Source: Gammaproteobacteria bacterium
Lineage (GTDB): Bacteria > Pseudomonadota > Gammaproteobacteria > SZUA-140
Length of the DNA: 64,000 bases
Assembly: GCA_020845975.1 (NCBI GenBank)
Contig: JADLET010000084.1
Location: 2,509-66,508 of the forward strand
Direction of reading: 5' to 3'
Shown: positions 4,521-46,768 of the stretch, piece after piece
Layout: each line of letters starts with the position of its first letter
Numbering within the stretch: the stretch's first letter is position 1
Translations under genes and position numbers: made by a program
Notes under the pieces: model-generated
Database searches by the model: none
What the model saw: the letters and a program-made list of their open reading frames with translations, nothing else
Told to the model about the DNA's origin: nothing

Positions 4521-6263
4521 ATGACGCCTCGAACCGCGCCTTCGACCCTGGTCCGCCCCGCCGGAGCGGGGATCGGTGGCGTCGGGCGCGCGCTCCTCGC
4601 CGGCCTGCTTGTTCTCGTCACGGGGACCCATGGCGCCTTCGCGCAGGCCGCTGACACACAAACCCCGTCCGCGGCCGCAGTCGCCTCCGCCCACCCGCTT
4701 GCCACCCGGGCGGGTCATGACATCCTGCAGGCGGGAGGTAATGCCTTCGATGCCGCGGTGGCGGTTGGCGCGATGCTGGCGGTGGTGGAACCGACCGGCT
4801 CCGGACTCGGCGGCGGCGGCTTCTGGCTGCTGCACCGCGCCGCGGACGGTCGGGAAATCATGCTCGATGGCCGCGAACGCGCACCGCTCGACGCGCATGC
4901 GGATATGTACCTGGACACAGACGGCGCGGTAATCCCTGCCGCGTCGATCAACGGCGCGCTGGCGTCGGCCATCCCCGGCACACCGGCCGCCCTGGCGCAC
5001 CTGGCCAGTCAGTACGGACGCCTGCCGCTGGCGCGCAGCCTCGCCCCCGCCATCCACGCCGCCCGCGAGGGGTTCCCCGTCGACGCGCATTATCTTCAAC
5101 TGGCGCGCTTCCGACTGGAGGCGCTGCGCCGTTCACCCGCCGCCGCGGCCATCTTCCTCGATCAGGGTGATCTGCCGAAAGAAGGTTACATCCTGCGGCA
5201 GCCTGATCTGGCGCGGGCGCTGGAGTCGATCGCCGGGCACGGGCATGCGGGTTTCTATGCAGGCCCGTTGGCCCAGGACCTCGTCGATGGCGTGCGTGCG
5301 GCGGGGGGCATCTGGAGCCTGCGCGACCTCGCCGGCTACCGTGTCGTCGAACGCGAACCGGTGCGAGGCGAATATCGCGGCATACGCATCACCACGGCCG
5401 CGCCCCCGTCCTCCGGCGGCATCGCGCTCGTCACCATGCTGAACATCCTCGCCGGTTATCCCCTCGAGGACCTCGCCGCGCCCGACCGCGCGCACCTCGT
5501 CATCGAGGCCATGCGCCGTGCCTACCGCGACCGCGCCGTCTACCTCGGCGACCCGGACTTCACGGAGGTCCCGATGGAAGTATTGCTGTCTCCGGCCTAC
5601 GCGGCCGGCCTGCGCAACGCCATCCGCCCCGATCGCGCCACGCCGAGCGCGATGCTCCCCGGTGTCGCGGCCGATGCGACGGGCACGGACACCACCCACT
5701 TCTCGATCCTGGATCGCGCCGGCAATCGCGTGGCCGCGACGCTGTCGATCAATCTCCCCTTCGGGGCCGCCTTCATGCCGCCCGGCACCGGGATCCTGCT
5801 CAACAACGAAATGGATGATTTCTCCATCAAGCCGGGCGTGGGCAATTCCTATGGCCTGGTCGGCGCGCAGCCCAATGCCATCGCACCGGGCAAGCGGCCG
5901 CTTTCGAGCATGACGCCGACCTTCCTCGACGATGGCCGCCGGATCGCGATCCTCGGCACGCCGGGAGGCAGCCGCATCATTACCATGGTACTGCTGGCCG
6001 CACTCGACTTTCAGCGTGGCGCCCCACCGCGGGAATGGGTGGGGTTGCGGCGTTATCACCACCAGTATCTGCCGGATGTCGTGAGCTACGAACCGGGCAC
6101 ATTCAGCGCGGACGAGACAGCGGCCCTGGCCGCGCGCGGGCATACGCTCGAGGAACGCACACGTCCTTACGGCAACATGCAGGCGATCCTGTGGGACCGC
6201 GCGGACAATCGCGTCAGCGCCGCGAGCGATCCACGCGGTGGTGGCACGGCCGAAACTCGCTGA
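4521..6263 (+). CDS. ggt: Gamma-glutamyltranspeptidase
   Basis: Signal peptide. TTHFSILD catalytic threonine region and GGSRIIT motif. 580 aa. Confidence 0.9.
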   Translation: MTPRTAPSTLVRPAGAGIGGVGRALLAGLLVLVTGTHGAFAQAADTQTPSAAAVASAHPLATRAGHDILQAGGNAFDAAVAVGAMLAVVEPTGSGLGGGGFWLLHRAADGREIMLDGRERAPLDAHADMYLDTDGAVIPAASINGALASAIPGTPAALAHLASQYGRLPLARSLAPAIHAAREGFPVDAHYLQLARFRLEALRRSPAAAAIFLDQGDLPKEGYILRQPDLARALESIAGHGHAGFYAGPLAQDLVDGVRAAGGIWSLRDLAGYRVVEREPVRGEYRGIRITTAAPPSSGGIALVTMLNILAGYPLEDLAAPDRAHLVIEAMRRAYRDRAVYLGDPDFTEVPMEVLLSPAYAAGLRNAIRPDRATPSAMLPGVAADATGTDTTHFSILDRAGNRVAATLSINLPFGAAFMPPGTGILLNNEMDDFSIKPGVGNSYGLVGAQPNAIAPGKRPLSSMTPTFLDDGRRIAILGTPGGSRIITMVLLAALDFQRGAPPREWVGLRRYHHQYLPDVVSYEPGTFSADETAALAARGHTLEERTRPYGNMQAILWDRADNRVSAASDPRGGGTAETR

Positions 6264-6293
6264 GTACCGCGCCGCGACCCGGCCCCGACCGCC

Positions 6294-7067
6294 TTACAGC
6301 TCGCAGTCGTAGTCGATGGTCAGCGGAGCGTGATCGGAAAAGCGCTCGTCCTTGTAGATGGACACCATCCTGACCCGATCCTTCAGTCCGGGCGTGATTA
6401 CCTGGTAGTCGATGCGCCAGCCGACGTTCTTGGCCCAGGCCTGACCGCGATTGGACCACCAGGTGTACTGGTCCGCCTCCTGATTGACGACACGGAAGGC
6501 GTCGACGAAACCGAGCGGCACGAACAACTGGTCCATCCAGGCGCGCTCCTCGGGAAGAAAGCCGGAGTTCTTCTGATTGCCGCGCCAGTTCTTGATGTCC
6601 AGTTTTGTATGCGCGATGTTCCAGTCGCCGCAGATGACATACTCGCGTTTCCCGCAGCGAAATTCCTTGAGCACCGGGGTGAAGCGTTCCAGAAAATCGA
6701 ACTTCACCGCCTGGCGGTCCTCACTGCTGGAACCCGACGGAAGATACAGCGAGATCACACTGAGCGAACCGAAATCCGCCTGGATGAAACGCCCCTCCCG
6801 ATCCATGTCCGGCCAGCCGAGCCCCATCGTGACCTGGTCGGGCTCGCGCCGGCAATAGAGCGCCACGCCGCTGTAACCCTTCTTCTCCGCATCGTGATAA
6901 TAGGCGAAGTAACCGGCCGGCCTCAGCAACTCATCGTTCAGCTGATGCTCCTGCGACTTGGTCTCCTGCAGACACACCACATCGGCGCCCTGTCGCGCGA
7001 GCCACGGGAAGAAACCCTTGCGGGCAGCCGAGCGTATGCCATTGGCGTTCAGGCTGATGATGCGCAT
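6294..7067 (-). CDS. xthA: Exodeoxyribonuclease III
   Basis: MRIISLNANGIR N-terminus and C-terminal SDHAPL motif. Start re-placed on the internal ATG preceded by AGGGA (8 nt). The ORF-track start at 7100 is a GTG. Confidence 0.85.
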   Translation of the reverse strand: MRIISLNANGIRSAARKGFFPWLARQGADVVCLQETKSQEHQLNDELLRPAGYFAYYHDAEKKGYSGVALYCRREPDQVTMGLGWPDMDREGRFIQADFGSLSVISLYLPSGSSSEDRQAVKFDFLERFTPVLKEFRCGKREYVICGDWNIAHTKLDIKNWRGNQKNSGFLPEERAWMDQLFVPLGFVDAFRVVNQEADQYTWWSNRGQAWAKNVGWRIDYQVITPGLKDRVRMVSIYKDERFSDHAPLTIDYDCEL

Positions 7068-7722: not shown

Positions 7723-7764
7723 ATGCCCATAAATGCCGTCGTCACGGGTGGAGGGACACGACAC

Positions 7765-8892
7765 ATGATCACGATCGCCATCGCCAATCAAAAGGGGGGA
7801 TGCGGCAAAACCACCGCCGCCATCAATCTGGCCGCCGCGCTGGGACGCAATGGCCATCGCGTACTGCTGGTCGACACCGATCCCCAGGGCCATGCCTCGC
7901 TGGGACTGGGACAACACTGCGGCAATCTGAACGGATTGTACGAGGTATTCATCCAGGAAGCAGAGCTCAGCGAGGTCATCATCCCCGCGGTAGCGCCCGG
8001 AGTCGATCTGGTGCCGTCGACCATCTCGCTCGCCGCCATCGAACACCTGCTGGCGGATCTGCCCCGCCGCGAGCGCCAGCTCGCGCAGCATCTGGACAGC
8101 CTGCCCCTGAACTACGACTTCGCCATCATCGACTGCCCGCCCACGCTCGGCCTGCTCTCATTCAATGCCTTGCGCGCCGCGGACCTGGTGCTGATACCGG
8201 TGGAGATGAGCGTGTTCGCGCTGGACGGGGTGGACCGCCTGCGTGACACCATCGAACTGCTGGCGGAAAAATACGAACTCGACATACCGGTACGCATACT
8301 GCCCAATCTGGTTGATCACCGCACCCGCTTCACGCAGGACACGCTGCATCGCCTGAAGGAGCGCTTCGGCGAGGAGATCCTCCCGGTGAGCATTCACTAT
8401 ACCGTGCGACTGAAGGAGGCCGCGGCGCGCGGCATACCCATCATCGATCACCAGCCCGGCTCGGTGGCGAGCGACAATTATCTCGCCCTGGCGGCGGAGA
8501 TCCTCCGCTTCAATGCGCAGACCATGCCTCGCGCACAGTCCGCGCGCGCTCCGTACGACGTCCCCCTTCCCGTCAGCCGCACTGTGGAAGAGCCGGATGA
8601 CGCGGATTACCGGCGGGACGTCAGCATGATCTTCCACGGACCCGCCGGGATCGATATCCAGATCGCCGGCGACTTCAACGGCTGGGCGCCCGATCAGGGG
8701 GTGGTGACGGAACGTCATGACGACATGCTGATCAAGACCCTGCATGTCGGTCCAGGACGCTATCAATACCGCCTGATCGTCAACGGGGAATGGCGCGCCG
8801 ACCCCACCAACCCGCGCTTCGAGACCAATGAATACGGCGAGATCAATTCCGTGCTCGAAGTGGAGGACATCCCGCACCTCGTCCCCGCATGA
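7765..8892 (+). CDS. ParA/MinD-family (deviant Walker A) ATPase fused to a C-terminal AMPK-beta glycogen-binding-like (CBM48/E-set) domain
   Basis: Start placed at the ATG giving MITIAIANQKGGCGKTT (KGGxGKT deviant Walker A), with GGAGGG SD 9 nt upstream. The ORF-track ATG at 7723 lies inside the terminator T-tract. The C-terminal ~90 aa VSMIFHGPAGIDIQIAGDFNGWAPD...GPGRYQYRLIVNGEWRADPTNPRF...NSVLEV matches the AMPK1_CBM/CBM48 consensus (F.W.G..V.L.GSFNNW...G.HQYKF.VDG.W..DP..P). Confidence 0.8.
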   Translation: MITIAIANQKGGCGKTTAAINLAAALGRNGHRVLLVDTDPQGHASLGLGQHCGNLNGLYEVFIQEAELSEVIIPAVAPGVDLVPSTISLAAIEHLLADLPRRERQLAQHLDSLPLNYDFAIIDCPPTLGLLSFNALRAADLVLIPVEMSVFALDGVDRLRDTIELLAEKYELDIPVRILPNLVDHRTRFTQDTLHRLKERFGEEILPVSIHYTVRLKEAAARGIPIIDHQPGSVASDNYLALAAEILRFNAQTMPRAQSARAPYDVPLPVSRTVEEPDDADYRRDVSMIFHGPAGIDIQIAGDFNGWAPDQGVVTERHDDMLIKTLHVGPGRYQYRLIVNGEWRADPTNPRFETNEYGEINSVLEVEDIPHLVPA

Positions 8893-10229: not shown

Positions 10230-10883
10230 ATGCAGGACTATCAGCAGGCCTTTCTCGACTTCGCCATCGCCCGCGGCGTGCTGCGCTTCGGCGAGTTCAC
10301 CCTAAAGTCGGGGCGCCTGAGCCCGTATTTCTTCAACAGCGGACTGTTCGATGACGGCGACGCCATCGCCGAACTGGGGCGCTACTACGCGGCCGCGATC
10401 CGCGCTTCCGGCATCGCCTTCGACATGCTGTACGGCCCGGCCTACAAGGGCATCCCGCTGGTCGTCGCCACCGCGATCGCGCTCAGCGACCGCCACGGCG
10501 TCAACGTCCCCTACGCCTTCAACCGCAAGGAGGCCAAGGACCACGGCGAGGGCGGCATCATCGTCGGCCGCGCGCTCACGGGCCGCGTGCTGATCATCGA
10601 CGACGTGATCTCCGCCGGCACCTCGGTGCGCGAATCGGTGGACATCATCCACCACGCCGGCGCGACCGTGGCCGGCGTCGCCATCTCACTCGACCGCCAG
10701 GAACGCGGCAAGAACGCGCAGTCCGCCATCCAGGAGGTCGAGGCGCAGTTCGGCATCAAGGTCGCCAGCATCGCCAACCTCGACACGCTGATCCGCTATA
10801 TATCAAAGCGCGCCGATCTCGGGCCAGTGCTGGAACGCATCGAGGATTATAGGAAACAATACGGCGCAAAAGGCGCAGCCTGA
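10230..10883 (+). CDS. pyrE: Orotate phosphoribosyltransferase
   Basis: [36 protein letters not shown] and the PRPP-binding [13 protein letters not shown] motif. 217 aa. Confidence 0.95.
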
Positions 10884-10891
10884 AGAAATCA

Positions 10892-10899
10892 ATAGTAGC
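10892..10899. repeat. 8-bp direct repeat ATAGTAGC, left copy, at the left edge of the low-GC insertion
   Basis: Identical 8-mer found again at 11965-11972 at the right GC transition. Candidate target-site duplication. Confidence 0.35.
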
Positions 10900-11056
10900 C
10901 CAGATGAAGGCGCAGAGCGCCGGAATCCGGGAGCATCTATCTAAGACAATCCCCGGATTCCGCTACGCTTCATCCAGGCTACGCTTGCTGTCATTGTCCA
11001 AGGCCAGCAGTTCGATCCCACACAAAGTTGGCCTCGCAAGAAACACTCAACCCAAC

Positions 11057-11476
11057 CTAGGCCTGTTTCAGCGACACTCCATCCGGAATGTAATGCACAT
11101 TGCTTTGGAATTGCTCCCGCCAGCTCCAAAGGTATTCGGTTAGTTTCTGAACTCGGTTTTTACTTAGACAATTCACAGACTGGTCTTGAGTTATGAATTG
11201 AAATAGCTCTTGACCAACATCCTCTCGGCACCACATTGAAAATTTCGTGAGTTCATTTAGTTCTCGATAATTGATTGCCAACGTCATTGGCTCGAATTTT
11301 ATTCTGCTCAGAGCATGGACAATTGCAGTCCGTTCGTAAGAAACACCTAATCTTACACACATCTGCTCGGCCACGTCTGCCCCTGCAAGCCCTTTCTCCC
11401 ACGCCTTATCCGCATTAACACACAGGTACATTAGAAATGCAGACCATTCTCCTGATACTTCAATTTGTCGGCCCAT
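11057..11476 (-). CDS. Hypothetical protein B of the low-GC two-gene cassette (139 aa)
   Basis: ~40% GC. Start placed at the ATG with GAGGAGG SD 10 nt upstream; the ORF-track first codon is TTG. The SD overlaps the stop codon of upstream gene A. No recognisable domain. Confidence 0.6.
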   Translation of the reverse strand: MGRQIEVSGEWSAFLMYLCVNADKAWEKGLAGADVAEQMCVRLGVSYERTAIVHALSRIKFEPMTLAINYRELNELTKFSMWCREDVGQELFQFITQDQSVNCLSKNRVQKLTEYLWSWREQFQSNVHYIPDGVSLKQA

Positions 11477-11491
11477 AACTTCCAAGCCTCC

Positions 11492-11884
11492 TCAAATTGT
11501 GGCATTGAAATATTGCTTCAAGCTTGTGTTAATCCCACCAGACGCATACGTAACAATATGAGTTGACGTGTCAACTGATACAAATTTAATTCCCGGGTGG
11601 TGTCTATCTTCGTATGTGCCGGGGTTATTGTAGATCTCCTGCATAACAGAAACTGGCATTAGATAATACACGGCGGCACTTCCACAAACCCATAGCTCGT
11701 AGTCAGCGGATAACGTGTTTGGATTGATATTGAACTTGTATTTTTCTGGAGCGCGCGAACTCTGAGAACAGAACCGAACATGAACTATGGAACCTTTAAT
11801 CTTATATTTGGCTTTTCCAAGGAAAGAAATATCTGACCCATTTGCAATCACCGATAATGCAGATTTCTTTTCTGCAGTGCTCAT
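11492..11884 (-). CDS. Hypothetical protein A of the low-GC two-gene cassette (130 aa)
   Basis: ATG with AGGA 8 nt upstream (aaaaggaaaacgccATG). AT-rich codon usage unlike the host. No recognisable domain. Confidence 0.6.
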   Translation of the reverse strand: MSTAEKKSALSVIANGSDISFLGKAKYKIKGSIVHVRFCSQSSRAPEKYKFNINPNTLSADYELWVCGSAAVYYLMPVSVMQEIYNNPGTYEDRHHPGIKFVSVDTSTHIVTYASGGINTSLKQYFNATI

Positions 11885-11964
11885 GGCGTTTTCCTTTTCA
11901 AATGATAATTCAACGTAATTAGAATTCGACAGCCTTGACGTATAAATCTACCAATCTAATTCAT

Positions 11965-11972
11965 ATAGTAGC
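11965..11972. repeat. 8-bp direct repeat ATAGTAGC, right copy, at the right edge of the low-GC insertion
   Basis: Same 8-mer as 10892-10899. Lies 5 nt upstream of the tauE stop codon region. Confidence 0.35.
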
Positions 11973-11976
11973 GCCA

Positions 11977-12732
11977 TCACCCAACCACCAGCTTCACCCC
12001 CACCAGCAGCGTCACCACCTCGAACGCACGCTTGATCATTTGGTTACCCTGCGCGATCGCGATGTGCGCGCCGAGGTAGCCGCCGATCAGTGAACCGAGC
12101 AGCAGCGCGGGCAGCCAGTCCCAGCGTACCGCCGCCTGCAGGCCGAGGGCGAGCGCGCCGGCGCCGTTCCAGAACAGGCCGACCAGGATCAGCGTATAGG
12201 CGACCGCGCGCTTGTAGTCGAAGCCGAACCAGCGGATCAGCCACAGGGTCGCGAACAACCCGGTCCCGGAGGACAGCGATCCGTTGACGACCCCGATCAG
12301 GAACAGGCATGCCCCGCCGATCATGAATCCGCGCCGGTCGCGATGTCGCGGCTGGTGTTCCTGACCGAGGCCCGGCTTGAGCCAGGAATAGATCCCCAGC
12401 CCCAGGGTAAGCAGGCCGAGCGTGACCTGGGCCGCGCGATCGGGGACCAGCAGGATCAGGCGCGCGCCCAGCACCACCCCGGGCAGGCCGGCGACCAGCA
12501 TGAAGCCGGCGAAGCGCCGCTCCACCCCGCCTGCCTTCAGATATCGCAGGGTCGCGCCGATACCCAAGGCAACCGTTGCTATCTTGTGCGTTGCGAGCGC
12601 CGTGCCGAAAGGCAGGCCAAGAAAGATCAGCACAGGCAGCTGGATCAGCCCGGCCCCACCCCCGGACAGGGCCGAGAACATGTTCGCCACGAGTGATATG
12701 GCAAACAGGATCAACTGGCTCAACCAGTCCAT
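11977..12732 (-). CDS. TauE/SafE (TSUP) family sulfite/anion exporter-type permease
   Basis: Poly-TM protein with duplicated halves and GxGGG-like motif (SALSGGGAGLIQLPVLIF). 251 aa. Confidence 0.8.
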   Translation of the reverse strand: MDWLSQLILFAISLVANMFSALSGGGAGLIQLPVLIFLGLPFGTALATHKIATVALGIGATLRYLKAGGVERRFAGFMLVAGLPGVVLGARLILLVPDRAAQVTLGLLTLGLGIYSWLKPGLGQEHQPRHRDRRGFMIGGACLFLIGVVNGSLSSGTGLFATLWLIRWFGFDYKRAVAYTLILVGLFWNGAGALALGLQAAVRWDWLPALLLGSLIGGYLGAHIAIAQGNQMIKRAFEVVTLLVGVKLVVG

Positions 12733-32451: not shown

Positions 32452-33385
32452 GGCCACCCTCCACCACCGACACGGGCTCGCCAACGATCCGCACCTCCGG
32501 CACCAGACGCACGCCCTGCAGCCGCTCGACGGTGTCGCGCACATGCAGGATCAGGGACTCGATGTCGGCGGCAGTGGCCGCGCCGTCATTAACGATGAAA
32601 TTGGCGTGCTTGCGCGACACCTCTGCCCCGCCGATGCGCGTCCCCTTGAGACCGCAGGCCTCGATCAGTCGTCCGGCGTAGTCGCCGGGCGGATTGCGGA
32701 ACACGGAGCCGCAGCTCGGCTGCCCCATCGGTTGCAGGTCAGTGCGGCGGGCAAGCAGTTCCTTAATCCGCGCGCGCGCCACTTCGGCATCGCCGGACTG
32801 CAGCCTCAGCTGCGCGGCGACAAACCATTCGCCAGCGGGCCCCTGCACGCTGCGATATCCAACCTCGTACTGATCAGGCGTGCGCCGGGTGATCTTGCCA
32901 CTCCGATCGATCGTATCGACGGATTGCACCAGGGACCAGGTCTCGCCGCCGAAGGCCCCTGCATTCATCGCGAGCGCGCCGCCCATGGCCCCGGGAATGC
33001 CAATCAGGAATTCTGTCCCGACCAGACCCGCATTCGCGCAATAGCGCGCCACCTTGGCGCATGGCGCGCCGGCGCCAACCTGCACGACCTCACCGTCCAT
33101 GAGGGTGATGTCGTCGAGCGCGGCGTTGGTGGCAATGACACTGCCGCGGATCCCGCCGTCGCGCACCAGCAGGTTGCTGCCGAGACCAATCAACATCACC
33201 GCTTCGTCCGCCGGCAATCCACCCATATAGCGCGCCAGATCATCAAGATCCGCGGGCTCGTAAAAATGGTCCGCCGAACCGCCCACGCGCCACGAGGTAT
33301 GGCGCGCCATGGACTCGCCGCGGCACAGGACGCCGCGTAGCGCCGGCGCATCGTGCCGTGACAGGGATGACTCGTCCAGCGCCAT
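32444..33385 (-). CDS. murB: UDP-N-acetylenolpyruvoylglucosamine reductase
   Basis: FAD-binding MurB pattern (WRVGGSADHFYEP..., GLGSNLLV). Start ATG shares the TGATG junction with the murC stop. Confidence 0.9.
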   Translation of the reverse strand: MALDESSLSRHDAPALRGVLCRGESMARHTSWRVGGSADHFYEPADLDDLARYMGGLPADEAVMLIGLGSNLLVRDGGIRGSVIATNAALDDITLMDGEVVQVGAGAPCAKVARYCANAGLVGTEFLIGIPGAMGGALAMNAGAFGGETWSLVQSVDTIDRSGKITRRTPDQYEVGYRSVQGPAGEWFVAAQLRLQSGDAEVARARIKELLARRTDLQPMGQPSCGSVFRNPPGDYAGRLIEACGLKGTRIGGAEVSRKHANFIVNDGAATAADIESLILHVRDTVERLQGVRLVPEVRIVGEPVSVVEGGHD

Positions 33386-34845: not shown

Positions 34846-35932
34846 GGGCCGCCTCCAGGCAGAGGCGGGCCACCTGCCGCGCCGACTCCGGCTGTGCCAG
34901 CCGACGCGCGGCCTGCGCCAGCCGCAGGATCTCGTCGCGCCCGTCGCTGGCGGCGGCGCGGCAAATTGCGCCCAGCAGCTCAGTCAACCGCTCCTCCAGC
35001 CGGGAATCCTGCGTAAGCAGCATGCCCGCGCCCGCATCGACCAGATAGGCGGCGTTGCGGGTCTGATGATCGTCTGCCGCGTGCGGAAAGGGCACCAGGA
35101 TCGCGCCTATCCCCGCAGCAGTCAGCTCGGCGATGGTCAGTGCGCCGGCCCGGCAGACCACCAGGTCCGCCCATGCGTAGGCCGCCGCCATATCGTCGAT
35201 GAAGGCCTGCACCTCGGCCTGAACGTCGAGGGCCGCATAGCTCCGCGCGACCACCGCGTCCTGCGCGCGTCCACTCTGATGACGGATCTGCGGGCGCTCC
35301 GCCGCGGACAGCGTCGCGATCACGCGCGGGACAGTCTCGTTCAGCGCTTGCGCGCCCTGACTGCCGCCCAGCACAAGCAGGCGCAGCGGACCCGTGCGAG
35401 CGCGCATACGCTCGGCGGGCTCGGGCAGCGCGGCGATCTCATCGCGCACAGGATTGCCGATCAGTTGTGGATGCAACCGTGCGGGCAGCGCCCCGGGAAA
35501 CGCCACCATGCAGCGGTCGGCAAGCATGGAAAGCCAGCGATTGGTCAGCCCGGCGACCGCGTTCTGTTCATGCACCAGCAAGGGCTTGCGCAACAGCCAG
35601 GTCACCAGACCGCCCGGACCAGCCGCAAAACCGCCCATACCGAGCACCGCCATCGGCCGGAAACGCAGGATGATCCGCAGGGACTGCAGCATCGCCCACG
35701 CCAGCCGGAACGGCAGTGACAGCCAGCGCAACAGCCCTTTCCCGCGCAGTCCGCCAATGGCGACGGTCGCGAGCTCGAAACCGGCGCGAGGCACAACCTC
35801 CGCTTCCAGGCCGGTCCGCGTGCCGAGCCAGAGGATGTCTGCGCCCTCGGAGCGCAGCTCGCGCGCCACAGCGATCGCGGGGAAGACATGCCCCCCGGTC
35901 CCGCCTGCCATGATCAGGATACGCGCCGCCAC
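34838..35932 (-). CDS. murG: UDP-N-acetylglucosamine--N-acetylmuramyl-(pentapeptide) pyrophosphoryl-undecaprenol GlcNAc transferase
   Basis: [24 protein letters not shown]. Likely GTG start just after the ftsW stop; the ORF-track ATG at 36037 would overlap ftsW by ~100 nt. Confidence 0.85.
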
Positions 35933-39604: not shown

Positions 39605-41059
39605 TCAGCCCCCCAGCCCTGCCTGTCGCGCCGGCGCCGGACCGCTCGAACCGCCGCCCGCCGCCTCGTCGGCAACCGTAATGGCGTCGACCACATGCTC
39701 CATGCGCGTGCTGCGCGAGCCCTTGACGAGCACGGTGACCGGCGTGGGTGTGAGGGCGGCAAGATCCGCCTGCAGGGCCGCAATCAGCGTGGCCTGATCT
39801 GGATAGTGGCCGGCGCCCTTGCCAAAGGCGCCGGCAACGGTGCGCGCCAGTTCGCCGACCGCATAGACACGGGAAACTCCGATCGCGCGCGCCTGACGCC
39901 CAACCTGTTCGTGCAGCGCCTGACCGGCGTTGCCGAGCTCGCCCATATCGCCCAGCACCAGTATCTTCTCGCCGTCGGCGCCACCCACCGCCAGCACCTC
40001 CAGCGCCGCCTTCACCGAGCCCGGGTTCGCGTTATAGGTATCATCAATGACACGCGCCCCGTGGATACCGCGCCTGAGCTGCAGGCGCCGTTCGACCGCG
40101 CGCATGGACTCGAGCCCGAAGGCGATGTCCGCAACTCCCAGTCCTGCGGCATGTGCCGCCGCCGCCGCGGCCAGTGCGTTCATCACGTTGTGGCGGCCGG
40201 ACAGACTGAGCTCGACCGCCGCCTCGCCCCCCGGCGTGATCAGCGTGAAGGAGCAGCCAAGGACTGCATTGAGGTGCAGGTCACGCGCCGTCACGTCGGC
40301 GGGATAACGCAGGCCGAAGCTGACGATGCGATGCGGCGCGGCCATGACCCGCCATAACCCCTCGCGTGGATCATCGGCGTTGATCACAGCGCAACCGTCC
40401 GGACCCAGTCCGGAGAAAATCTCGCCCTTGGCGCGCGCCACACCGGCGATATCGCCGAATCCCGCCAGGTGGGCGGGCGCGGCGTTGGTGATAAGCGCGA
40501 CCGTGGGACGCGCGAGACGTGTGAGATATTCGATATCCCCGGGCTGATTCGCGCCCATCTCGATCACTGCGCCGCGATGCTCGCGCCGCAGATTGAACAA
40601 CGTGAGCGGGACGCCGATGTCGTTATTCAAATTACCGTGCGTACTGAGCGCGCTCCCCCGCGTGGCCAGAATGGCGGCCAGCATCCCCTTGACCGTGGTC
40701 TTGCCGTTGCTGCCGGTCACTGCGATGAGTGGTATGGGAAAGCGCTCACGCCAGGCGGAGGCGAGCCGGCCCAGTGCGAACCGGGTATCTGCGACGCACA
40801 CAACGGGCAACGCGGTGGCGACATCGCGATGCACCAGCGCGGCGACCGCGCCGCGCGCCGCCGCGGCGGCGAGATACTCGTGCGCGTCGAAGTTGCGTCC
40901 CTGCAAGGCAATGAACAGGGCGCCCGCTCCCAGCGTACGGGTATCGGTGCCGACCGTATCGAAACGCCGGTCCGCGCCGCGCAGCTCACCATCGACCAGC
41001 AGCGCCAGCTCGCTCAGCGTCATGCCGCCCTCGAGCGCCACGTCATGCAACACGGTCAT
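39605..41059 (-). CDS. murF: UDP-N-acetylmuramoyl-tripeptide--D-alanyl-D-alanine ligase
   Basis: Mur ligase domains ([11 protein letters not shown]). Dcw position. Confidence 0.93.
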
Positions 41060-46401: not shown

Positions 46402-46768
46402 TGAGGTGGGAGCCGGCCTGTAAGCCGGGTTCTGTCGTGGACAGTCATTCATCTGGGACACGCGTTACCGCGCGCCTCAAGCGACCTACCCGGGAACAGT
46501 GCGGGCCGCACCAATGTTCCCCTATTTGGTCTTGCTCCGGATGGGGTTTACACTGCCACTGGTGTTACCACCAGCGCGGTGCGCTCTTACCGCACCATTT
46601 CACCCTTACCCGCCACCTCACGGCGGCAGGCGGTATATTTTCTGTTGCACTGGCCGTCGGCTCACGCCGCCCAGGCGTTACCTGGCATCCCGCCCTATGG
46701 AGCCCGGACTTTCCTCCTCCTCCTGCCGCTTGAGGCGACAGGGAAAGCGACTGTCCGGCCGACTCCCG
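46402..46768 (-). ncRNA. rnpB: RNase P RNA (bacterial type A, M1 RNA homologue)
   Basis: The reverse complement contains the universally conserved blocks GGAAAGTCCGGGCTCCATAGGGC, AGGTAACGCCTGG, CAGTGCAACAGAAA, GGGTGAAA.GGTGCGGTAAGAGCGCACC and CCCGGGTAGG.CGCTTGAG, aligned to E. coli M1 RNA. P1 pairs GGAGTCGGCC with GGCCGGCTCC. Confidence 0.9.

Follow-up and report, generated by a model that had tools for sequence, protein, structure and literature searches.

Two small genes in an AT-rich islet between tauE and pyrE of a gammaproteobacterium and their relatives in integron cassettes

Introduction

Integron cassettes carry toxin-antitoxin (TA) and defence genes (Kieffer et al., bioRxiv 10.1101/2024.07.02.601719), and phage-defence systems of chromosomal integrons are cited in 10.64898/2026.03.17.712381. 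The two-gene TA cassettes of chromosomal integrons are small, co-oriented, cassette-derived pairs whose reading frames overlap or abut. Integron-borne phage-defence cassettes are compact, attC-bounded genes of previously unknown function.

Several nucleases are also relevant to the locus described here, such as the intron-encoded homing endonuclease I-Ssp6803I, the BisI family (NhoI and the N-terminal domain of Eco15I), R.PvuII, the archaeal Hjc resolvases, and MepB. The PD-(D/E)XK motif consists of an Asp at the start of strand 2, (D/E/Q)xK on strand 3 and, usually, a Glu on helix 1.

The window, i.e., the whole 64-kb stretch of DNA that was analysed, contains an AT-rich islet with two small adjacent genes, here called A and B, which a preliminary description had proposed as a candidate TA or phage-defence pair. 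Most probably, A and B do not form a system. The reading to which we give about an even chance is that the islet consists of two independent integron-cassette genes, fused and fixed.

The islet and its genes

The features of the locus are collected in Table 1. The two small co-oriented genes of the preliminary description were recovered with the same boundaries, and the exact proteins are already deposited, under the name "hypothetical", for a Gammaproteobacteria metagenome-assembled genome (IT488_06230 and IT488_06225). A TTG codon 9 nt upstream of the B ATG is an alternative start that would give a protein of 142 aa.

Table 1. Positions in the window of the genes, edges and flanks of the islet
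Feature	Position	Strand	Description
pyrE-like phosphoribosyltransferase flank	10230..10883	+	PF00156; convergent with B; also flanks A-B in the P0123 contig
Imperfect palindrome (REP-like)	10893..10982	.	between convergent pyrE and B, outside the islet proper
Islet	11027..11976		0.95 kb; holds A and B between tauE and pyrE
B 3' segment	11027..11056	-	GTTGGGT at 11056-11050, then RYYYAAC-like GGCCAAC at 11033-11027
Gene B	11476..11057	-	ATG start; 139 aa
A-B junction	11477..11491	-	GGAGG at 11491-11487, right after the A TGA and 10 nt upstream of the B ATG
Gene A	11884..11492	-	ATG start; 130 aa; TGA stop at 11494-11492
AT-rich leader	11885..11976	-	GC 0.35; tauE stop to A ATG; GTTGAAT at 11914-11908
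tauE/safE flank	11977..12732	-	PF01925, E = 3.7e-43; GC3 0.86; same orientation as A, directly upstream

The islet is foreign DNA, as had been proposed. Its GC content (0.426) is below that of the window as a whole (0.633), of pyrE (0.656) and of tauE (0.665), and the GC3 values of A (0.405) and B (0.436) are about half those of pyrE (0.885) and tauE (0.861). A and B are real genes and not chance ORFs, since both have homologues, confident structure models (AlphaFold pLDDT 93 for A and 91 for B) and dN/dS values below 1 (0.59 and 0.26, respectively) in the comparison with L042, the closest relative. That neither could be assigned to a named family was confirmed by zero matches of A and B in Pfam, NCBIfam, PADLOC, and PHROGs; scans with the whole families added one weak match to PDDEXK_5, described below.

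The genes found around the islet in the window are those for the pyrE-like enzyme, TauE, a DUF4124 protein, an amino-acid kinase, a ParA-like ATPase and an ExoIII-like enzyme. This neighbourhood is a housekeeping one and not a defence island.

Gene A in integron cassettes and between core genes

A word-seeded search gave 179 clusters of A homologues, nearly all of about 130 aa, with identities of 52-100% and none of them named. About 38 A loci were fetched, approximately 28 of them distinct. Taking one genome per species gave 26 loci, which cover Gamma-, Beta-, and Alphaproteobacteria, Planctomycetota, Verrucomicrobiota, Thermodesulfobacteriota, Acidobacteriota, Dehalococcoidia (Chloroflexota), Clostridia, Chthonomonadaceae, and one Methanoperedenaceae archaeon.

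In 13 distinct loci an attC site (RYYYAAC...GTTRRRY) directly follows the A stop codon, as read by eye in the sequences (for instance L001, L005, L010, L013, L014, L016-18, L020, L022, L023, and L026), and a strict structural detector confirms the site after A in L001, L010, L017, L020, and L026. The A gene of L001 is the third cassette of an array and has attC on both sides; the divergent recombinase of this locus is an integron integrase (TIGR02249, 486 bits versus a cut-off of 265). The cassette start G/TTGGGC, located 25 nt upstream of the A ATG, is common to five loci. The A family has all that defines an integron gene cassette, that is, an ORF, the G/TTRRRY boundary and a downstream attC, with arrays by intI. 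The A gene of L013, 77% identical to that of the window, carries attC right at its stop and is not accompanied by B.

Other copies of A are solitary inserts of lower GC between core genes, and insertion between conserved genes was found in at least eight loci. For instance, two alphaproteobacteria have the order gatA-(GIY-YIG)-A-gatB, and other arrangements are prs-A-pth, rpoN-A, A-guaA, and nrdA-A. Altogether, about 25 distinct loci have A on its own, with neither B nor any constant neighbour at the locus level. Because of these solitary loci, L013 among them, A appears to be tolerated without B and hence would not be a toxin that depends on it.

Inserts of this kind, spread over many phyla and in two cases next to a GIY-YIG gene in gatA/gatB, would also be accounted for if A were a free-standing selfish homing-type endonuclease that recognises a conserved target in empty sites by well conserved housekeeping genes and cuts there, B being a hitch-hiker and the cassettes a second vehicle. 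Related bacteria would then acquire the low-GC islet at one and the same position through repair from the donor copy, which agrees with the diverged A-B versions held by the tauE/pyrE site, with their GC3 still at about 0.4, with the silent divergence of A, which does not reach that of the flank, and with the structural resemblance of A to I-Ssp6803I and the weak PDDEXK_5 match described below. However, zero relatives of A or B were detected in viral contigs, phage genomes and 72,556 plasmids, and the phage and viral collections are where free-standing homing endonuclease genes abound. Moreover, identities above 50% across phyla are atypical for homing endonucleases, the canonical catalytic residues are not evident in A, and the dS of B equals that of the flank, which fits plain vertical descent. 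We regard this explanation as improbable, the least likely of those considered here.

Predicted fold and candidate active site of A

The predicted structure of A contains the core alpha-beta-beta-beta-alpha-beta arrangement of the restriction-endonuclease-like fold, i.e., that of the PD-(D/E)XK type. Its best structural match is I-Ssp6803I (PDB 2OST, 13% identity), which places A beside a known homing-endonuclease structural family. The I-Ssp6803I family is classified as Pfam PF11645 (PDDEXK_5); one of 41 members of the A family matches this profile weakly (E = 0.064), and the A protein of the window gives no match at E values up to 10 and does not reach the Pfam gathering threshold. Unlike I-Ssp6803I, A is not intron-encoded, and the canonical acidic/Lys motif is unrecognisable in it. 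Sequence searches of the PDB with profiles gave chance matches only, and the alignment of A to the verified PvuII sequence with hhalign was not significant (probability 0.1%).

With respect to the active site, the strand that by topology should bear (D/E)xK reads E63-L-W65 in the A family alignment, its Trp being invariant; the Trp would occupy the position of the Lys of R.PvuII, archaeal Hjc resolvases, and MepB. The preceding strand has no conserved Asp in this alignment, and N52 and N54 are invariant there. K50, D61, and D93 are conserved and E5 is mostly so. The BisI family has WD/AD...Q-x-K where A has N...E-x-W, and no sequence similarity between them is detectable. A canonical catalytic signature is thus not evident, and the nuclease activity of A is inferred from the modelled fold.

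The preliminary description had pointed out an "H..K..D" pattern near the C-terminus of A as vaguely PLD- or nuclease-like. The nuclease-like part of this suggestion agrees with the predicted fold and the PLD part had to be abandoned. The spacing of the PLD motif is HxK(x)4D, whereas the residues of A are H96-x3-K100-x4-D105; position 100 can be K or R, D105 is not invariant, and the fold is of another type.

A may also be no nuclease at all. It could be a nucleic-acid binder that has kept the nuclease scaffold but lost catalysis, for instance a regulator or a protein that reads a DNA or RNA feature, or else a metal-independent RNase acting through conserved His, Lys, Arg, and Tyr. The invariant residues of the family, mainly K26, H35, R37, N52, N54, N56, Y74, Y91, and W65, point in this direction, and so do the replacement of (D/E)xK by E63-L-W65 and the basic character of the proteins (pI 9.1 for A, family median 9.2). 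Nevertheless, we consider this quite unlikely, since the conservation of E63, D93, and D61, together with K50 on the neighbouring strand, would allow a non-canonical metal site.

A different possibility, which we consider less likely than not and which overlaps with the reading of the islet as two fused cassette genes, is that A is a solitary restriction-like defence enzyme, e.g., a cutter of modified DNA as in the BisI family, and that B is unrelated cargo. An enzyme of this type would spare its host even if no methyltransferase or antitoxin were present, and A is always solitary at its other loci. In addition, integron cassettes encode small defence genes, and in L045 a cassette neighbouring the B module encodes a ThsB-like TIR protein. 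However, PADLOC gives no match, the PD...QxK motif of BisI is missing from A, the copies at housekeeping loci lie outside defence islands, and conservation as high as that of A is unusual among restriction enzymes.

Taken as a family, A is a new, unannotated and widely transferred group within both the PD-(D/E)XK superfamily and the integron cassette genes. A broader reading, fairly unlikely in our opinion, would make A a cross-phylum family of small PD-(D/E)XK proteins with a non-canonical site that act as autonomous defence or homing nucleases, and B a plug-in module of new fold. A would then have spread both by integron cassettes and by insertion between core chromosomal genes in bacteria and in one archaeon.

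Gene B and its partners

The B family is rare. Its homologues form 17 clusters, and a metagenome scan yielded just one further locus. B is mildly acidic (pI 5.7) and predicted to be an alpha/beta protein. Sequence and fold searches of the PDB with B found no relative, and on the basis of its confident model B is regarded as an orphan fold in an unannotated rare family. Residues 36-55 look like a helix-turn-helix by eye only, and no tool result gave this assignment support.

B is always the last gene, normally of cassettes with two or three genes, and has never been seen without a co-oriented gene upstream, although its partners vary. Elsewhere it trails at least four unrelated upstream partners, none of which resembles A. 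The cleanest arrangements are those of L052 and L054, which are two-gene cassettes of the form attC, p164/165, B, attC, with an ATGA overlap between the genes; p164/165 has an acidic tail and only a weak match to DUF7669. In L045-L050, p93, p162 and B lie in this order between two attC sites, and a ThsB-TIR/8xMP cassette comes next. A TPR-like protein of 156-161 aa is encoded directly upstream of B in L040, L041, and L051, a Sel1 protein in L039, and genes for 94-aa and 196-aa proteins in the P0128 contig, where they lie beside an RHS toxin gene. B modules are bounded by attC before and after in L045-L047, L050, L052, and L054, and the B family thus also belongs to the integron cassette genes. 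PADLOC returned no matches for A, B, three homologues of each, or the partners of B.

In being compact, attC-bounded genes, the A and B families resemble the integron-borne phage-defence cassettes. They differ from them in that neither was found in the 72,556 plasmids or recognised by PADLOC, and in that the copy in the window has no attC. Both families are mobile and travel on integron cassettes, which are well known as a source of TA and defence genes.

The ancestral partner of B would be the 165-aa protein, p165. The survival of B without p165 in at least three contexts makes it more likely that B is the non-toxic half of the original module (a regulator, an antitoxin-like protein or an effector) than that it is a toxin.

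The A-B junction and the history of the pair

On the minus strand the junction reads ATT TGA GGAGG CTTGGAAGTT ATG, so that the stop codon of A overlaps the GAGGAGG of B and lies 15 nt from its ATG. L042 keeps this layout (TAAGGAGG...ATG). The arrangement had been interpreted as classic translational coupling and, as a layout, it is confirmed; as a sign of partnership it is not, since it is probably the scar of a deletion.

This interpretation is based on the resemblance of the sequence before the B ATG to the 3' end of p165, the usual partner of B. About 18 nt upstream of the ATG in the window, GGAGGCTTGGAAGTT, align to the last p165 codons of L054, GGGGAGGGACTTGAAGATAT, and also to a p165 remnant in L039; this homology covers just 18-20 nt at roughly 70% identity. 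In L045, the interval between the p162 stop and B still contains about 50 nt that clearly correspond to the 3' end of p165. Furthermore, in the cassette copies of A the R'' box of attC begins exactly where the junction of the window begins (TGA followed by GGCCCAAC). The junction is probably the native ribosome-binding segment of B plus a deletion scar.

The ancestral state would then have been two neighbouring cassettes, one with A and the other with p165-B. A deletion would have removed the attC of A together with p165, leaving B, with its own ribosome-binding segment, after the A stop codon. We infer this deletion history from a short stretch of homology. A itself would be a homo-oligomeric nucleic-acid endonuclease or binder that does no harm to the host in the absence of a partner, acting as a restriction-like enzyme with specificity for a modification or a site, or else as a selfish nuclease of the homing type. 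If the islet is indeed made of two fused cassette genes, a role of A in solitary defence is somewhat favoured over homing.

The adjacency of A and B was found only in the window, L042-44 and the P0123 contig, in all cases at the tauE/pyrE locus and, outside the window, in close relatives; when all fetched A loci were searched with B by tblastn, only the window and L042-44 matched. In L042-44 the order is tauE-A-B, and A and B are 90% and 86% identical, respectively, to those of the window; in the P0123 contig the pair lies beside a convergent pyrE, with identities of 78% and 62%. The proposal of a pair, which by its own terms would fall if A and B never co-occurred elsewhere, essentially falls on this point, since the combination is confined to one orthologous locus.

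Compared with L042, the nucleotide identity of the tauE end (0.897) is close to that of B (0.905), and A reaches 0.939. The corresponding dS values are higher for the tauE fragment (0.284) and B (0.255) than for A (0.091), all of them from small numbers. Since the dS of B matches that of the tauE fragment, B looks vertically co-inherited with the flank. The silent divergence of A is threefold below that of B, again on small numbers, and this low value, together with a GC3 of about 0.4 that has not shifted towards that of the host in an apparently long residence, hints that the pair was refreshed horizontally and not simply inherited by vertical descent. Purifying selection has maintained A and B in three or more diverged lineages, and a functional partnership acquired after the fusion would also fit.

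These observations bear on the proposal that A and B are a true TA or abortive-infection module, in which A would be a PD-(D/E)XK toxin and B a coupled antitoxin or immunity protein that binds it. The nuclease fold of A, the classic toxin/immunity look of neighbours of which one is basic and the other acidic, the tight coupling kept in L042, retention of the pair, with dN/dS below 1, in three or more lineages and an ancestry in cassettes, where TA pairs are common, would all be in line with such a module. The p165-B unit native to B, with its ATGA overlap and its attC boundaries, also has the look of the TA cassettes of chromosomal integrons. However, every other A locus examined, including the 77%-identical L013, lacks B, and B follows unrelated partners elsewhere. 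TA families are expected to co-occur across unrelated genomes or loci, and the toxin should never be found without its antitoxin; A and B co-occur at one orthologous locus and are not co-inherited beyond it, while at the locus level A is solitary and B persists without p165. Neither of them resembles a known toxin or antitoxin family or matches a defence profile. A dedicated TA or defence pair is therefore not sustained, A being mostly alone, B having other partners, PADLOC being blank and the neighbourhood being a housekeeping one, and we judge the two-gene module to be unlikely.

Edges of the islet

The GTTGAAT of the leader fits GTTRRRY and lies 30 nt upstream of the A ATG, and the proximal leader, GAAAAGGAAAACGCC, is common to the window and to L013, a bona fide cassette copy. 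A 36-nt leader segment (~11901-11936) is missing from L042. At the other end, similarity to L042 stops immediately past the GGCCAAC that follows B, with an identity of 0.60 in the 30-nt segment and 0.37 beyond it. The distance of GGCCAAC from the B stop is similar to that of R'' in the attC located after B in L045 and L054. Judged by its sequence, the B 3' segment is probably a truncated remnant of the attC of B that retains R'' only.

The attC calls were made by a direct test of fold energy and geometry. Positions 10880-12010 contain no attC-like fold, the best values being -0.09 to -0.15 versus -0.17 to -0.34 kcal/mol/nt for ten genuine sites, and in the candidate over the B 3' end the ends remain unpaired in the fold. 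Five strict attC-like matches were obtained in the window (12298-12363, 33073-33131, 35218-35345 on both strands, and 40798-40898), none of them in the islet. The 64-kb window contains no attC array and no integron integrase (tblastn with the L001 IntI, best E-value 1.1). Since there is no attC fold in the islet and neither intI nor an attC array in the window, the islet is a dead, fixed cassette fragment that can no longer be mobilised. An intact cassette inserted at a secondary GTT site was considered and rejected, as no foldable attC precedes the GTTGGGT after the B stop.

No sigma-70-like promoter and no terminator were found on the minus strand of the leader between tauE and A, and a very stable hairpin is present after B. 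Read-through from tauE is possible on these grounds, and a tauE-A-B transcript is plausible. The hairpin region, which includes the imperfect palindrome with inverted repeats I1 and I3, folds with -75.8 kcal/mol over 177 nt (z = -4.7) and is likely to be a bidirectional terminator; the exact palindrome 11-mer is not enriched in the window.

Biological meaning

If the history proposed here is true, a stop codon within a Shine-Dalgarno sequence in an AT-rich islet can be a scar left when cassettes fused and not the mark of a functional TA or defence pair, which calls for caution when such arrangements are interpreted. B has no fold relative in the PDB and pairs promiscuously, and it is hence worth studying. 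The strongly conserved 130-aa A family, with its nuclease fold, is a candidate for a defence enzyme reduced to one small gene, or for a selfish chromosomal endonuclease; if the latter were true, chromosomal "intronless homing" by A outside phages would be unusual. The main interest of the locus lies in the extreme conservation of A, its solitary lifestyle and the atypical residues of its active site.

Boundaries of the islet

The low-GC islet that holds genes A and B is accompanied by a direct repeat of 8 nt, GGTTGGGT, present on the minus strand at 11986-11979 (the 3' end of tauE, immediately ahead of the islet) and at 11057-11050, where the second copy overlaps the stop codon of B. This repeat includes GTTRRRY, the integron core-site consensus, and the pair could represent a target duplication or microhomology. 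In the comparison with L042, the closest relative locus with the tauE-A-B arrangement, the direct repeat is not conserved.

Cassette-derived DNA located outside intact integrons repeatedly ends exactly past the R'' box of attC (GCCCAAC|), as detailed in the table. In canonical integron recombination, by contrast, the crossover point is the G|TT of the R' box.

Features of the window and of related loci
Feature	Locus	Coordinates	Strand	Remarks
REP-like hairpin, nested inverted repeats	window	10893-10982		between convergent pyrE and B; ~90 nt, near-perfect
RNase P RNA, bacterial class A	window	46405-46766	minus	346 bits
GIY-YIG gene and A homologue	L028	5639-6384		between gatA and gatB
GIY-YIG gene and A homologue	L033	~5700-6390		between gatA and gatB
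A homologue, N-terminal 44 codons	L024	4668-4799		directly after an attC
A homologue, remainder	L024	6001-6279
End past R'' box	L003 vs L002	5393+
End past R'' box	L019	6393+
End past R'' box	L024	6282+
End past R'' box	window	11027

Divergence of gene A and its homologues

With respect to L042, the dS of A (11492-11884) is 0.09, whereas those of B and the tauE fragment are 0.26 and 0.28, respectively; synonymous changes are thus about three times fewer in A, dN being similar, although all these values derive from small counts. The low dS hints either that A has recently been replaced or has undergone gene conversion, or that its silent sites are under constraint. A 36-nt piece of the A leader (window 11901-11936), containing ATTACGTTGAAT, is missing in L042. 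This segment lies between copies of a short repeat, TACGT(C/T), an arrangement suggestive of slippage or of a small duplication.

In two different alphaproteobacterial MAGs (L028 and L033), the gatA/gatB interval holds an A homologue together with a small gene for a GIY-YIG nuclease, and gatB starts 3-4 nt past the end of the A homologue. At L024 (4556-6282) the A homologue is apparently split, and its presence in two parts suggests that about 1.2 kb has been inserted within the gene.

Other elements of the window

The 177-nt fold spanning the pyrE/B hairpin has -75.8 kcal/mol (z = -4.7). The hairpin core 11-mer, CGGAATCCGGG, is not enriched across the window (5 matches vs 3.4 expected). The whole 64-kb window contains no tRNA genes. 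At 7723-8892, a ParA/MinD-like ATPase (AAA_31, CbiA) carries a fused C-terminal AMPK1_CBM glycogen-binding domain, an unusual pairing within one protein.

Cassettes at loci of the B family

Sites of the attC type are typically 57-140 nt long. The cassettes of L054, a B locus, are instead set apart by extremely short attC-like sites, GCCCTAACGCAGCGTTAGGC, at 651-686 and 1128-1154, which span roughly 20 nt, the R'' and R' boxes being nearly contiguous. At L045, another B locus, the cassette past the B module (1402-2607) holds two genes, the first for a ThsB-like TIR protein of 129 aa and the second for an 8xMP membrane protein of 266 aa; together they look like a candidate defence pair carried by an integron cassette.
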